Below are positions 5,471 to 60,075 of a stretch of 64,000 nt of DNA, one piece after another. Each line of letters opens with the position of its first letter. Positions within the stretch are counted from its first letter, which is position 1. Below the pieces are notes generated by a model that was not told the origin of the DNA, did no database searches, and worked only from the letters and a program-made list of their open reading frames with translations. Both the position numbers and the translations under genes were made by a program. The DNA comes from Escherichia coli (lineage in GTDB: Bacteria > Pseudomonadota > Gammaproteobacteria > Enterobacterales > Enterobacteriaceae): the NCBI RefSeq assembly GCF_030013205.1, contig NZ_CP122648.1. One strand, given 5' to 3'.

Positions 5471-5594
5471 TTTGGCGGCTCCTTTGTCTAATTTACGGAG
5501 TCTCGCCAGCACGCTGCTAAACATGGTGGCGGGACGTAACAGGGTTAGCAGACTGGTGACAAAGAAACCAGCAGGCCTTACGGCCTCCCCATTA

Positions 5595-5718
5595 CGCCCC
5601 GCCATAATACGGGAAAGGGTGGTATTACGGGCACAAAAAAACCGCATTACGGAAATATAGCGGCTACCCGCTTTGTCAATCAGGCTGCTAAACCCGGCAC
5701 CCGCTTTATGAGGTGCGG
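5595..5718 (-). ncRNA. conserved three-block noncoding element, copy A (hairpin, then T7-terminated block, then ATTATGGCGGGGCG on minus strand); candidate sRNA or leader attenuator
   Basis: blocks CGCCCCGCCATAAT, GCACAAAAAAACCGC and CAGGCTGC.AAACCCGGCACCCG.TT..TGAGGTGC recur in same order and similar spacing at 59946-60075. Confidence 0.4.
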
Positions 5719-8639: not shown

Positions 8640-8714
8640 TGGTGTCCCCTGCAGGAATCGAACCTGCAATTAGCCCTTAGGAGGGGCTCGTTATATCCAT
8701 TTAACTAAGAGGAC
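8640..8714 (-). tRNA. argW: tRNA-Arg (anticodon CCU)
   Basis: reverse complement reads GTCCTCTTAGTTAAATGGATATAACGAGCCCCTCCTAAGGGCTAATTGCAGGTTCGATTCCTGCAGGGGACACCA with T-arm GGTTCGATTCC and CCA end. Confidence 0.9.
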
Positions 8715-37196: not shown

Positions 37197-37396
37197 TACG
37201 TATCCTTATACCTGAAATCTTCGCAAGTATGCCTGGCCGCGAGATTATGGCACACTTGTCCGGTTAACTCTCGTCTCATACAGGTAACACAAACGTGAAA
37301 ATCCTTGTTGATGAAAAAAATGATGATTTAATTTATTGATATAAAAGGATTTATATCAGCACGTGTCCACGTAGTGACCACATTTTCGAGTTACAG

Positions 37397-37462: not shown

Positions 37463-38356
37463 CTATTTCCAGTTACAAGCAGCTTGAAGTGGTTTTAGCG
37501 CGTTTGACAGGCCGTTTAAATTGAAAGTTGCACTTACAGGGCTCTCATTATAAGGAGTTATTTTTGTATACATTTTGTTTGAGTTGGCTAGTTTTCGGAT
37601 GAAATCAATGTCATTACCTTTATAAAAAACAGCCTTTGTATCTGTAGATACTAGCCAGTTTCGCTCAACTGCTTTCTGTTTATCAAGACGATAAAGCATG
37701 CTGGTTTGTTCAAGGCCTAAATATACATCCCAACTAAGAAATACTTCGGTTTTCTTTTCTCGGCAAGCTATAAACAGAGTGGGAGTAACCGCTTCTCCAA
37801 ATGGAGTTCTGATATAATCATCACTTTCTAACGATAAAATTACATTTTTCGAATCATCAATTGGCGATGTAGTAATGGATGTGTGCCATTTTCCTACATC
37901 TGTGGCTTTCTCTAATTTTGATTCAGCTTGAACAGCTTTATCCTGTGGGAATAGTTTATCGTAGCAGTTTAGTCTGGCTTCTTTATCATTTTCTGCTCGG
38001 CATTTAGATATCTCAGAAAGATTTGGTTGCTGAGCCTCTGTTGTTACTGGCTTTTCCGTTTTAGATTTTGAGTTTACAGATGGAGTAAATGTTGGAGAAA
38101 AAAAACGATCATAACAAGATAAACGTCTGTCATCATCTTTCTCATCAGGGCATTGATCTCTGCTTTCGAATTTTTCAGCAACTTTCGTTCGAGTCGGTTG
38201 TATTGACTTATCGTAACAAGAAAGTCTGTCTTTATTATTTTCTATTGCTCGGCACTGGAGTACTGCATTGAAGTTATTATGTTCAGTTGCTGCGTGAACA
38301 GGCAGTACACTAATTGATATAAATGATGCACCTATAGAAAAAATTATATTTTTCAT
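37463..38356 (-). CDS. secreted protein with three tandem Cys-containing repeats (RLSCYDK-type) and a C-terminal domain; function unknown
   Basis: 297 aa; signal peptide MKNIIFSIGASFISISVLPVHA; AT-rich; not in the remembered K-12 flk neighbourhood. Confidence 0.6.
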   Translation of the reverse strand: MKNIIFSIGASFISISVLPVHAATEHNNFNAVLQCRAIENNKDRLSCYDKSIQPTRTKVAEKFESRDQCPDEKDDDRRLSCYDRFFSPTFTPSVNSKSKTEKPVTTEAQQPNLSEISKCRAENDKEARLNCYDKLFPQDKAVQAESKLEKATDVGKWHTSITTSPIDDSKNVILSLESDDYIRTPFGEAVTPTLFIACREKKTEVFLSWDVYLGLEQTSMLYRLDKQKAVERNWLVSTDTKAVFYKGNDIDFIRKLANSNKMYTKITPYNESPVSATFNLNGLSNALKPLQAACNWK

Positions 38357-38360
38357 TTTG

Positions 38361-38702
38361 TTATCCTTTTGGTTTAGTAAGAAATACTAAAATTCCGATA
38401 ATGATATCGCCAATAACCCATAAACTTCCAATGGTAATTAAACCTAAGCCTGTACCAATAACTGCACCGGCTTTTTCGGCATCGGATGTAGCATTATTTA
38501 TTATTTCACTAGTGCCTCCCAGTCCAACTAAAAGCGTATAGATCATAAAAATATTAAATAATATAAATATCCACTTGATGAGCTTTCCAAAAAATGAACG
38601 CTTAAGTTTTTTTATTTGTTTACCGCAAGCAGGGCAATACAATGCTGAATCGCTCACCTCTTTCTGGCATTCAGGACATTTGATTAATGCCATGTAATCC
38701 AC
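38361..38702 (-). CDS. zinc-ribbon membrane protein (CPECQ...CPACG then two TM helices), GTG start
   Basis: 113 aa; starts 5 nt after upstream ORF. Confidence 0.55.
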   Translation of the reverse strand: MDYMALIKCPECQKEVSDSALYCPACGKQIKKLKRSFFGKLIKWIFILFNIFMIYTLLVGLGGTSEIINNATSDAEKAGAVIGTGLGLITIGSLWVIGDIIIGILVFLTKPKG

Positions 38703-38954
38703 CTCCTTTGGATCAATACGAGTTGATATTTGTTACAAAACATTTTGATTTTATCAGATTTTTTTTTATTGATAAGTGTCAATTGATTAGCTGGTATAGA
38801 GTGAGACATATAGAAGGGCAGATCTGTATCAGTAGTGATGCAAAAATCCCACAGTTTCATGGAATTTTTGCATTTAGAGCCGTGAGATAGGGTGCCTTAT
38901 CGACCTTACCCTGGCAACCGATTGACGGGGGATTACTCCCCCGTCGCGGTTTCC

Positions 38955-39095
38955 TTACTGCTTACACTGTAAGAACGCCGCAAACTCCGCTCCCCAGAAA
39001 CTCATCCGTATTTCGCACAGCGAACCGTGCAACATCCAGATGATGAGGATTACCGTCACGCAGAACGTGATGGCTGTAAGCGATTTTTGCGACAT
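38955..39095 (-). CDS. Hok/Gef-family type I toxin-like peptide, 46 aa (not in ORF track)
   Basis: hand translation MSQKSLTAITFCVTVILIIWMLHGSLCEIRMSFWGAEFAAFLQCKQ; AAGGAG 8 nt upstream; N-terminal TM helix plus SLCE and AAFL motifs as in HokA. Confidence 0.5.
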   Translation of the reverse strand: MSQKSLTAITFCVTVILIIWMLHGSLCEIRMSFWGAEFAAFLQCKQ

Positions 39096-39285
39096 AGCAC
39101 TTGCTCCTTTTCCGGAGAGGCGCTAACCTTTCACTTGCTTAGGGTAGACGGTTAGGGCCTCGGTTAAACAAAAGTGTTTTCCGGGGCCTTTCCACATCTG
39201 GCCTTCGGGTATTCCCTCCGACCATCAGCCGAAAGGCACCCGCGCGTAATCTATCGCTTTTTTGTTACTCCGGCAATTCTGCTTG

Positions 39286-39546
39286 TTAATTCTGAGGTAA
39301 AGGCAAACTCATCTGATTGTTTCCCCTGTGTGAAGCTGGTAGCTCATGCCACGGGATACCTTCTGAAGAGTGAACGCCGGAGGCGTGTTTCGATGTGAAT
39401 TTATGGAAAGCTTCCAGTGTTGAGAAGCATACGCCGCATTCCAGATTGTTACACTGGTAATACTTTTGCCGCACGGTGTTTGAATCATTTTCCGGACGAC
39501 TTGTGCGGATACGGGCAGATGCGCCACAAAGCGGACAACGGAACAT
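39286..39546 (-). CDS. ogr: Ogr/Delta-family zinc-finger late-gene activator
   Basis: N-terminus MFRCPLCGASARIRTSR...YYQCNNLECGVCF matches the Ogr Cys4 motif. Confidence 0.85.
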   Translation of the reverse strand: MFRCPLCGASARIRTSRPENDSNTVRQKYYQCNNLECGVCFSTLEAFHKFTSKHASGVHSSEGIPWHELPASHRGNNQMSLPLPQN

Positions 39547-39737
39547 AGCGACCTCCCTTAACGTGGTGTTGCCGCTATTCTAGATTGTACGTTCCCTAAT
39601 TCCAACTAACAGCTCGCTCTGTGCGAAGAGTGAAAATTGAACTTTCAATAGTTGTTGAACTTTCATACATCCAATGTGAAAATTCATACGTTCATAATAG
39701 TTAAAATTTAAAATATTGTATATCAGGTGAATAAAGC

Positions 39738-40760
39738 ATGGGAAGAGATATAACGCTGTACCCTAAAAAAGCAACTAGAAACGAACTTAAAAATTACCTT
39801 GAAAATTTAGGTTTTAAAAGGTGTAAACATTTGTGGGAATGGCCCCAAGGAACGTTGAATTACTCTTGGTTTGATGATACGGACTTCAAATCTACAGATG
39901 GAGTTTCGGCTGATATATATCCTGTTTCAAATGACGAATTACACATATCTGGTAATAAATGGGCATTGCATGTGCGTAATTTATATAGCGCTAGTTGGCA
40001 TGATGTAAAAATGCTTAATGATGTTCTAAAAGGCGCAAGGAGTCTTTTTGGTGGAACACTTATAGGTGATTATGGGAAAAATAGGTACGCTCCTCTATGG
40101 AAGGATTCTAGTAGTCCGATCAGTCGTGGCATTTCTTCAATATTTAATCATGTCCATCATGAGATTTCCGCTGTTAAACATGCCTTACCTGAACCTTCTA
40201 TTAAATTAAACCTACCGGAAGATGGCGGCTTATCCGAATACTTTGATTACATGCAATGTATGGATCCCAGTAGAGTTATATATAATGGATTAGTACCTTT
40301 TGCGGTTGCTATGTTTGAATACTTTTTCTCTAGAGCTTTTCAAATACTTATAAAGTACGATCCTTTCGCAATAGCAAAAAGAACATCGTATAAGCAAAAA
40401 GTTGATTTTGATATTCTGCTTGAGATAGAGAAAGGAAATATTTCAATAGAAAGTGTTATTGCAAGAAATTACACTTTTCAAAACTTAACCCACCTAAACA
40501 AAGCATATAAAGAGTGGCTGGATATAGATGTGAGAGCGATTCTTTATAAGAAAAAAAGAATTGGAAAATCAGTTGATTTTCTTGAGAATCGAATTTCTGA
40601 AATCATACAATATAGACATGGGATAGTTCATCACTTTGAGTTGGATAGGACCTTAAATCGGGATGGATATATTCATATATTAGATGCGCTAGAAAAAAGC
40701 ATAATTGAATTTATCCATTACATAGAAGGCAAATACAAATTTAAATTAAATGCGTATTAA
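39738..40760 (+). CDS. hypothetical protein, 340 aa, strongly AT-rich accessory gene between ogr and D; no recognisable domain
   Basis: ORF track; opposite strand to flanking late genes; own AT-rich upstream region with direct repeats; hairpin terminator after stop. Confidence 0.6.
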   Translation: MGRDITLYPKKATRNELKNYLENLGFKRCKHLWEWPQGTLNYSWFDDTDFKSTDGVSADIYPVSNDELHISGNKWALHVRNLYSASWHDVKMLNDVLKGARSLFGGTLIGDYGKNRYAPLWKDSSSPISRGISSIFNHVHHEISAVKHALPEPSIKLNLPEDGGLSEYFDYMQCMDPSRVIYNGLVPFAVAMFEYFFSRAFQILIKYDPFAIAKRTSYKQKVDFDILLEIEKGNISIESVIARNYTFQNLTHLNKAYKEWLDIDVRAILYKKKRIGKSVDFLENRISEIIQYRHGIVHHFELDRTLNRDGYIHILDALEKSIIEFIHYIEGKYKFKLNAY

Positions 40761-40788
40761 GCAATCAACCTTACATAGGGATGACAAA

Positions 40789-40815
40789 GTCCGCTTCTGA
40801 CACGGAGCGGACCGT
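40789..40815. terminator. hairpin GTCCGCT-N10-AGCGGAC between convergent 340-aa gene and D
   Basis: seen in sequence. Confidence 0.5.
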
Positions 40816-40880
40816 CGTTTATGTTTAATTCTATACTGTAAACTTGCCAGTTTAAGTTTGAGCTAATATGTCTAAGTTGC

Positions 40881-41990
40881 TCACTCTGTTTCTGCTATCC
40901 ATTCCGGGATTTTTGCCTCAAGCTCAAGCTGTGTGGTAAAGCCGCTGTTATCAATGGTGTGCTCGGCTTTCGCAATAATCCAGTCCTGATTATCAATCTC
41001 GCTTTTAAATCCTGTTACCGTGCCATGCATTTCGGGGTAGAGTTCTGCACGTCCACGCACCAGCGTGATGGAAAACGATGCGGCTCCGCGTTGTAGCTGC
41101 TGCCACTTTGCCGCCGCTGCGCGTCTTGCTGCCTGCTCGTTCTGATAAGTCTTGCGTAACACAAACACATTGCCTTCCGCGCCTTCCATATAATCACCTT
41201 CACGGCTGCTGCTTTTCTCCTTTTTGGGTTTTGGCGGTTTGCGGCGTTTCACGCTGACTTTTTTCTTTTTCCCGTAATTAAGATCAAGCCAGTAAGCGCG
41301 TACCCCCGTATACGCCTCGCGGTCAGCAATGCGGAACTGATGGCGATCGCCGCTGCTGCGTGTGATGGCGAACGATGGCAACGGCTGGCCCTGTGCGTTC
41401 ACGCCACCGCCGGGCATGATGAATAACAGATTACCGCTTTTTACCGTGGTGATTGCGCCCAGCATTTCCGCCATGCGCGTAAGGAAGGACATGTCGCTTT
41501 CTTCAGTCTGGTCGGCGTGGTCGATTTCGATATCCATCAGCATTTCGCTGATTTGCGGTTTCAGGCCGTACCGATGAGCGATGGCGGATACCACACGTTC
41601 AACGGTCACATCATGCCAGGACGCCTCACGTTTAACATTAAATTCATCCCGAAAATCTGCGCTTCTGGCTGAAACAGTCAGCCTGTCCGGCGGTCCTTCG
41701 TGAGCGATTTCATCAATAATGTAAGTGCCTTTTTCTGTCAGCGGTTCCCCTTTCCAGCCAATGAGAACCGTCAGACGCGCGCCCCGTGGCGGTAGCTGCA
41801 ACTGGCCATCGGCATCATCCAGCGTGATGGTGAGCTGGTCCGCCTCAAATCCCCGGTTGTCGGTCAGTGACAGGCTCATCAGGCGTTCTGCCACGCCGGA
41901 CAGCGTTTTACCCTCGGCGAGAATATCAAAATCCGGCATTTTCACGGGGTCTGTGCCCTGACTGAGCAATTGCATGGTGGTGTCGGTCAT
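40881..41990 (-). CDS. D: P2 gpD-like tail protein (late control D)
   Basis: similarity to P2 D (LSLTDNRGF..., DGPPD, RSADFRD); start chosen at ATG 41990 with GAGGGA RBS, track ORF extends to 42122. Confidence 0.85.
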   Translation of the reverse strand: MTDTTMQLLSQGTDPVKMPDFDILAEGKTLSGVAERLMSLSLTDNRGFEADQLTITLDDADGQLQLPPRGARLTVLIGWKGEPLTEKGTYIIDEIAHEGPPDRLTVSARSADFRDEFNVKREASWHDVTVERVVSAIAHRYGLKPQISEMLMDIEIDHADQTEESDMSFLTRMAEMLGAITTVKSGNLLFIMPGGGVNAQGQPLPSFAITRSSGDRHQFRIADREAYTGVRAYWLDLNYGKKKKVSVKRRKPPKPKKEKSSSREGDYMEGAEGNVFVLRKTYQNEQAARRAAAAKWQQLQRGAASFSITLVRGRAELYPEMHGTVTGFKSEIDNQDWIIAKAEHTIDNSGFTTQLELEAKIPEWIAETE

Positions 41991-59816: not shown

Positions 59817-59945
59817 GGTGTGGCCCCTTGTGTAGTAAGTTGTGAAAACTCACCATCCAGAGCTGCGAAACTGTGGGTGGCGAGACGTACGAGGTTCGCA
59901 GTACCGGCTACACAAGAACCCGGCCCGACCGAAGTCGGCCCCGTA

Positions 59946-60075
59946 CGCCCCGCCATAATTCTGACGCGAAAAAAACGTGGCAATACAGTACGCACAAAAA
60001 AACCGCTGGCGCGGTTGTGCGCTTGTGTAGTCAGCAGGCTGCGAAACCCGGCACCCGTTTTGTGAGGTGCAGCGG
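59946..60075 (-). ncRNA. conserved three-block noncoding element, copy B (candidate sRNA/attenuator; minus-strand hairpin plus ACCGC-GCCA-GCGGT-T7 terminator)
   Basis: same three blocks as 5595-5718 in same order; track ORF 59510..60127 judged a spurious translation. Confidence 0.4.

Follow-up and report, generated by a model that had tools for sequence, protein, structure and literature searches.

The DNA analysed here is a 64,000-nucleotide stretch of an Escherichia coli genome (the window), in which a reading frame of only 46 codons adjoins the ogr gene of a P2-like prophage. A frame of this size falls below the length cut-off of the gene track with which the window was first read, and it raises two questions: whether it encodes a genuine toxin of the Hok family, and whether it is accompanied by the structured mRNA and the antisense RNA that are expected of a type I toxin–antitoxin module. 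In our assessment the locus is very probably (at about 0.9) a hok/sok-type type I toxin–antitoxin module that forms part of the cargo of a P2-like (Peduoviridae) prophage and lies between ogr and the attachment-site end.

The peptide, its family and its recurrence

38955 to 39095, minus strand: hok coding sequence, with an ATG start, 46 codons and a TAA stop; identical to RefSeq WP_000078920.1

A sequence-only reading of the window had described a minus-strand frame of 46 codons, an N-terminal transmembrane helix, the SLCE and AAFL motifs of Hok toxins and a good Shine–Dalgarno (SD) sequence, and each of these elements is present: The listing of open reading frames places the frame exactly at 38955..39095 (−) with the 46-aa product MSQKSLTAITFCVTVILIIWMLHGSLCEIRMSFWGAEFAAFLQCKQ, which contains the hydrophobic stretch LTAITFCVTVILIIWML. 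SLCE (residues 25–28) and AAFL (residues 39–42) are aligned with their counterparts in K-12 HokA, and AAGGAG at 39109–39104 is situated 8 nt 5′ of the hok ATG (39095–39093). A comparison with the Hok family, which the same reading had proposed as a check, returned significant similarity in Pfam, NCBIfam and PHROG as well as in the alignment with HokA. In Pfam, HOK_GEF (PF01848) matches residues 7–44 over model positions 5–42 of 42 (E 4.3e-7, 29.9 bits), while PHROG 251 (“MokW-like host killing”, category moron) matches over the full length (E 2.5e-23). The two NCBIfam models score lower relative to their curated cut-offs, with 35.8 bits vs 89 for HokA (E 6e-9) and 23.6 bits vs 73 for generic Hok (E 3.5e-5), and the peptide consequently falls outside the HokA equivalog NF007290. 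Because both NCBIfam scores lie well under the curated cut-offs, we assign the peptide on sequence grounds to a separate subgroup of Hok and exclude that it is a HokA orthologue; HokA is its nearest K-12 paralogue (43% identity), and SLCE and AAFL-x-CK are common to both. In the sequence logo of a Hok catalogue, M1, C16, T18, L30, C31, E32 and E41 are conserved in >80% of 1264 Hok peptides (10.1101/2025.08.07.668861). All seven family-conserved residues are found in the window peptide, as M1, C12, T14, L26, C27, E28 and E37. By homology, the short gene is to be regarded as a real Hok-family membrane toxin.

The statement that the gene is unannotated applies to the length-limited track of the sequence-only reading and does not extend to RefSeq, where the identical locus is annotated as WP_000078920.1: A length cut-off in ORF tracks conceals a toxin gene that the database already lists. 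When a 901-bp segment surrounding the ORF served as query, several complete E. coli chromosomes matched it at 100% identity, and in RefSeq the product is a “Hok/Gef family protein” adjoining an “ogr/Delta-like zinc finger family protein”. The Peduoviridae phage records 500465-2, P88, P884B11 and Chuche name the same gene “MokW-like host killing”. Because HokW of the Stx2 prophage Sp5 is a different Hok of 51 aa, “MokW-like” is to be understood as a family label that carries no evidence of orthology.

Toxicity within this subgroup is likewise on record. According to the text of the Hok catalogue, a 2026 preprint (10.1101/2025.08.07.668861), hok genes show enrichment within prophages, and 42 of the 45 homologues tested were toxic; three non-toxic ones are named there, none of which belongs to cluster 72. 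Its Table S2 lists the constructs 72_1621 and 72_1589 among those tested for toxicity. The former is the window peptide except for V15A and equals the copy beside ogr at L010, the latter is the copy beside lom in O157:H7 (L003). From the text of the preprint together with Table S2 (10.1101/2025.08.07.668861) we infer that the V15A variant 72_1621 is toxic; the window peptide has V15. The gene and its family have been reported before, as have its enrichment in prophages and the toxic effect of near-identical peptides, which makes the feature a known one, and beyond its annotation the locus matters little.

The gene recurs as part of a larger unit: Of 5426 complete E. coli genomes, 1749 contain the block from about 39253 to 38889, as do 35 plasmids, with an identity of 75–100%. 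It follows ogr in P2-like prophages, lies beside lom or J in lambdoid prophages, forms a triple tandem array beside serS and occurs on IncF and IncI plasmids; within the 64-kb window, no second copy of the module was found. Among 12 diverged copies, the ORF is intact in 11, with 45–46 codons in each of these. Across the copies dN/dS amounts to 0.06–0.62, and the variable columns number 24, 12 and 30 at codon positions 1, 2 and 3, respectively; we read this pattern as purifying selection on the peptide. Short ORFs are common, with 38 of at least 20 aa in the surrounding 3 kb, and the frame could on this count alone be taken for a functionless product of chance in an intergenic region, a reading that is already refuted by the family matches, the conservation, the selection and the RNA structure described below, and to which we assign a negligible probability.

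Two groups of copies deserve a separate mention. In E. coli N51 (L006 557–1870), three head-to-tail copies of the hok module are located beside serS about 470 bp apart; two of them specify the same diverged peptide (MPQKTIIV...), the third a peptide close to that of the window. On the E. albertii plasmid pEA5_1 (L007 601–885), a degenerate copy, in which codon 2 is a stop and an internal part is deleted, is still annotated as a 33-aa “hok/gef family protein”.

Predicted transcripts and their folds

The elements that we assign to the sense strand are the following.

39248 to 39276, minus strand: predicted hok promoter, with −35 TTGCCG at 39276–39271, a 17-nt spacer and −10 TAGATT at 39253–39248; putative start at about G39241
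38840 to 39241, minus strand: predicted full-length hok mRNA of about 350–400 nt; 5′ end from the promoter and the Rfam model, 3′ end approximate
39231 to 39241, minus strand: tac, the 5′ translational-activator element GGGUGCCUUUC, pairing with fbi in the full-length fold and with ucb after removal of the 3′ end
39183 to 39193, minus strand: ucb GGAAAGGCCCC, the alternative partner of tac in the fold of the truncated mRNA and in the RNAalifold consensus
39104 to 39120, minus strand: hok ribosome-binding site AAGGAG (39109–39104) and anti-SD CCUCUCC (39120–39114), predicted to pair with each other
38923 to 38946, minus strand: GC-rich hairpin GACGGGGGAG-UAAU-CCCCCGUC directly after the hok stop codon
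38890 to 38898, minus strand: fbi, the fold-back inhibitory element AAGGCACCC, complementary to tac
38840 to 38871, minus strand: 3′ terminal AT-rich hairpin of 13 bp in the minimum free energy (MFE) fold, 18 nt after fbi and outside the conserved module

The promoters of hok and of the antisense RNA were both located from their conservation and from a comparison with sokB and sokC as annotated in K-12; a consensus promoter scan of 38700–39400 reported neither of them at its thresholds. For hok, the −35 TTGC and the −10 TA(G/A/C)A(T/A/G)T are kept in 10 of 11 related copies despite differing flanks, and 39241 is the position to which base 1 of the Rfam leader model aligns. This model, RF01794 (“sok”), aligns over its full length to 39241–39082 (−) with an E value of 6.8e-10 and 51.9 bits, which is below its gathering score of 59 bits; K-12 hokC and hokB reach 118 and 110 bits, and the 46-aa subgroup 35–52 bits. 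A reading of the match as the antisense RNA itself was considered and rejected: In K-12 the model fits the strand on which hokC and hokB lie, opposite to that of the annotated sokC and sokB, and despite the name “sok antitoxin” we take RF01794 to represent the sense-strand leader of the hok mRNA. Apart from the match in the window (39082–39241, −), the model was found at L012 602–754 and at L014 1067–1218. Because the Rfam score stays under the threshold, both the antisense RNA and the hok mRNA of the subgroup carry no annotation in the records examined.

The 402-nt predicted transcript (39241–38840) folds with an MFE of −174.8 kcal/mol (z −8.67 vs shuffles). In the MFE fold its two ends are joined by nine consecutive pairs between tac and fbi, GGGUGCCUU (39241–39233) with AAGGCACCC (38898–38890). 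In the truncated fold and in the RNAalifold consensus, columns 1–11 pair with columns 50–59 instead, which corresponds to tac–ucb. tac is invariant among the intact copies, GGCACCC of fbi is kept in them as well, and the homology between copies stops directly 3′ of fbi. Both the tac–fbi closure and the tac–ucb alternative are predictions made here, with partners that are invariant, so that covariation speaks for neither helix. The consensus as a whole contains 90 pairs; in 13 of them both partners have changed in a compensatory manner, for the most part in the 5′ hairpin and in the hairpin after the stop codon; the latter (columns 303–328) holds six of the 13. Moreover, columns 128–131 pair with columns 140–143, which connects the SD with its anti-SD, and in the thermodynamic model the probability that the SD is unpaired in the full-length window RNA is 0.00. 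The 3′ hairpin at 38840..38871 is likely to be the transcript end or a protective hairpin; its function as a terminator is uncertain, as no clear U-tract follows it. Other copies possess a different hairpin or a terminator at the same distance from fbi.

A further predicted pairing involves the start region of hok: AUGUCGCAAA (39095–39086, −) is complementary in the model to UUUGCGGCGU (38984–38975, −), which sits within the codons for the conserved FAAF motif, so that the start region would pair with codons 38–41. Since both sides are invariant across the copies, constraint on the RNA and constraint on the protein are inseparable at AUGUCGCAAA and UUUGCGGCGU.

On the opposite strand, two elements were assigned.

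39101 to 39129, plus strand: predicted Sok promoter, with −35 TTGCTC at 39101–39106, 17 nt, −10 TAACCT at 39124–39129, 7 nt and G39137
39137 to 39197, plus strand: predicted Sok-like antisense RNA of about 60 nt, with putative ends; its position, via the Rfam model, matches sokC and sokB

The sequence-only reading had recommended a search for a sok-like promoter in 39096–39285, and a candidate does lie within this region, at 39101–39129 (+), overlapping the hok ribosome-binding site on the complementary strand. By consensus it is weak (three of six positions in each hexamer), and it was missed by the promoter scan because only 6 of 12 positions match. The −10 TAACCT is invariant, the −35 reads TTGCTC or TTGACT in 11 of 11 copies, and every copy retains −35, −10 and the G start; this invariance could stem in part from structural constraints on the sense-strand RNA. 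The antisense RNA is predicted to consist of a single-stranded 5′ tail of about 17 nt, a long hairpin (39155–39188) and a UUUCC tail, with a folding energy of −31 kcal/mol (z −3.75). The design of tail, hairpin and GGGGCCUUU is found in every related copy, and changes in the inner stem preserve the pairing. A comparable arrangement is provided by sokB of MG1655, with TTGCCG-17-TAAGAT-7-G, a hairpin of GGCCUCGG...CGGGGCC and a U-rich tail; sokC is similar. We strongly infer a Sok-like antisense RNA from these correspondences, short of a demonstration. A YUNR U-turn motif in the loop of the Sok target was considered as well: CUAA is present, and it was set aside as too degenerate to serve as evidence. 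What was observed in the present analysis comprises the family membership, the sequence elements, the two alternative predicted folds and the conservation with covariation.

A leader with no conserved mok frame

In plasmid R1, translation of mok up to the hok SD is mandatory, and in R1 as well as in K-12 hokB and hokC the mok frame has its start within the Sok target and extends to the hok SD (R1 paradigm: PMC9841398). At the window locus, a leader frame from the Sok target to the hok SD is absent: No AUG is found at the mok position, and stops interrupt all three frames (TAA 39141–39139, TGA 39133–39131 and TAG 39125–39123). The copies differ in their leader ORFs and have frame-shifting indels throughout the leader. 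One upstream frame was examined as a possible substitute.

39123 to 39197, minus strand: 24-codon upstream ORF in the hok frame; its TAG lies 27 nt before the hok ATG and just before the anti-SD; not conserved

Translation of this frame could open the anti-SD. As a mok equivalent it was rejected: In related copies the same ATG leads to a stop after 1, 8, 15, 21 or 61 codons, with an immediate stop in three of them, and its TAG owes its conservation to the Sok −10, of which it is the complement. The 24-codon frame is probably no mok equivalent. A mini-ORF of three codons, GUG-NNN-GGU-UAG, was dismissed too; it recurs and is missing in two copies, and its UAG is explained by the Sok −10.

Because a conserved mok frame is missing, the mode in which Sok blocks translation in R1 is not directly transferable to this locus. 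We regard this as the sole departure from the textbook system and as the sole mildly new point of the analysis, which, if confirmed, would amount to a modest refinement of the hok/sok regulatory paradigm.

The same observation bears on whether the module is still productive. A silent relic would have retained an intact peptide gene and lost toxin production together with the mok-dependent route, as has been reported for several K-12 hok loci. In its favour are the stops in all three frames before the hok ribosome-binding site, the lack of a conserved leader ORF, the requirement of R1 for mok translation up to the hok SD, and the modest predicted opening of the SD after truncation (0.09). It is at odds, however, with the purifying selection on the peptide and with the retention of promoters, tac, ucb, fbi and Sok hairpin at 75% identity across phages, plasmids and chromosomes; moreover, the hok of the window, unlike that of R1, possesses its own strong SD. 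We consider a relic improbable and continue with the reading of a functional module.

How hok could be translated in such a module is addressed by the accessibility of the SD. Thermodynamic modelling over 11 copies gives a mean unpaired probability for the SD of 0.01 with the full-length RNA, 0.14 after truncation and 0.02 after truncation with the Sok target masked; the shift has the same direction in 9 of 11 copies, and the SD of the window reaches 0.09 after truncation. These values are weakly compatible with a mok-independent relay, in which the former mok ribosome-binding box GAGGC (~39161–39157) may act as nothing but an RNA relay: Once the 3′ end is trimmed, GAGGC may capture the anti-SD GCCUC (39121–39117), whereupon the strong SD of hok opens, and binding of Sok may remove the relay, re-close the SD and mark the mRNA for RNase III. 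That the 46-aa Hok subgroup (cluster 72) is a mok-independent hok/sok variant with the GAGGC box as RNA relay is a tentative proposal on our part, which may well prove wrong.

Prophage setting, proposed mechanism and known systems

The sequence-only reading had located the gene beside the ogr end of the prophage, which is correct in that the module adjoins ogr and inaccurate in that it is not at the edge of the element, with about 1.6 kb of AT-rich cargo before the junction. The chromosomal junction lies at 37317/37318: K-12 homology covers flk and the first 23 nt of pdxB and stops at window position 37317. The cargo, with about 35% GC, occupies 37318 to about 38884 and is followed by hok/sok and ogr with about 50% GC. 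These boundaries place the module inside the prophage, near the ogr-side end and not at it.

Several neighbouring features were noted in passing. The cargo encodes a 297-aa “TagO”-like protein with repeated CYD motifs (37463–38356) and a 113-aa zinc-ribbon membrane protein (38361–38702); both match PHROGs of unknown function, and the cargo is shared with PhiR44_2 and not with P88. A search of the neighbouring cargo genes with PADLOC defence models gave no matches. Between ogr and gpD lies an insertion of 1288 bp (39583–40870, 34% GC), which is absent from PhiR44_2 and P88. Its ORF of 340 aa (39738–40760, +) shows a weak Pfam match to HEPN_RiboL-PSP (E 3.7e-4) with an RHGIVH (Rx4H) motif and no match in PHROG or PADLOC; it could be an uncharacterised moron for HEPN-type defence or abortive infection. 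The adjacent tail gene gpD (40881–41990, −) has 1110 nt in PhiR44_2 and 801 nt (“VgrG/Pvc8 family”) in the identical RefSeq record, and may represent a truncated gene or a shifted start. Elsewhere in the window, two pairs of C4 antisense RNA and isrK sRNA, at 5522–5716 (−) and 59873–60070 (−), score above the Rfam gathering scores; one is near a tRNA-Arg gene, the other inside the P2-like prophage. Such pairs are typical of prophage immunity or antirepressor regions. The tRNA-Arg(CCU) gene (8640–8714, −) is probably argW, a common site of prophage integration, and the C4/isrK pair nearby suggests a second prophage in the window.

For the module itself we propose a mechanism whose transcript ends, 3′ processing, RNase III cleavage, Sok instability and biological role are modelled by analogy on R1 hok/sok and hokW-sokW. 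A structured hok mRNA of about 350–400 nt would start near 39241 (−). In its full-length form, the tac–fbi closure would hold the ends together and the upstream CCUCUCC would lock the ribosome-binding site, with the result that no toxin is made. Slow trimming of the 3′ end would then remove fbi, which would allow tac to pair with ucb and would free the region complementary to Sok. In the presence of the constitutive and presumably unstable Sok-like RNA of about 60 nt (+, ~39137–39197), pairing at this region would silence the mRNA and mark it for destruction. The 3′ exonucleolytic activation and the RNase III cleavage of the Sok–hok duplex are assumed here after the models of R1 (PMC9841398) and hokW-sokW (PMC8621323). 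Once the supply of Sok stops, be it by loss of the prophage or by a transcription shut-off caused by an infecting phage, the stable processed mRNA would be translated, and the 46-aa peptide would insert into the inner membrane via its N-terminal helix and kill or arrest the cell.

The role that we favour for the module is prophage stabilisation or abortive defence, which is probable by the same analogy. The same module could instead act mainly in host lysis and phage release after induction, as hokW-sokW does in Sp5, where mitomycin C lowers sokW RNA and raises HokW and where the release of Sp5 halves without hokW-sokW (PMC8621323). Its position would permit such a role, as the module immediately follows the late-gene activator ogr, shares its strand and is separated from it by no evident terminator, which makes late read-through conceivable. 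HokW, however, is a different Hok of 51 aa, and phage release plays no part for the copies of the 46-aa module that reside on conjugative plasmids or in tandem arrays next to chromosomal serS; we consider lysis as the main role rather unlikely, though less so than a relic.

Compared with hok/mok/sok (parB) of R1, the window locus has in common a small membrane toxin, the tac–fbi closure and the tac–ucb alternative, both predicted here, a predicted antisense RNA within the leader whose promoter overlaps the hok ribosome-binding region, and a GC hairpin after the stop codon. It differs in the length of the peptide (46 aa vs 52), in having no conserved mok frame, in its own strong AAGGAG, in its location on a prophage instead of a plasmid, and in a leader that scores below the RF01794 gathering threshold. 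With sokB and sokC of K-12, the predicted Sok shares the G start, the hairpin of GGCCUCGG...CGGGGCC and the U-rich tail; the K-12 RNAs start 48–49 nt upstream of the hok ATG vs 42 nt in the window, and the annotated mokB and mokC begin inside the Sok target, where the window has no AUG. The cluster 72 members 72_1621 and 72_1589 are 46 aa long like the window peptide and belong to a high-abundance cluster; the preprint that describes them (10.1101/2025.08.07.668861) deals with the coding sequence only, with Mok, Sok and mRNA structure outside its analysis. The hokW-sokW module of the Stx2 prophage Sp5 (PMC8621323), finally, is a hok/sok system borne by a prophage like that of the window, and its toxin HokW comprises 51 aa vs the 46 aa of the peptide described here.
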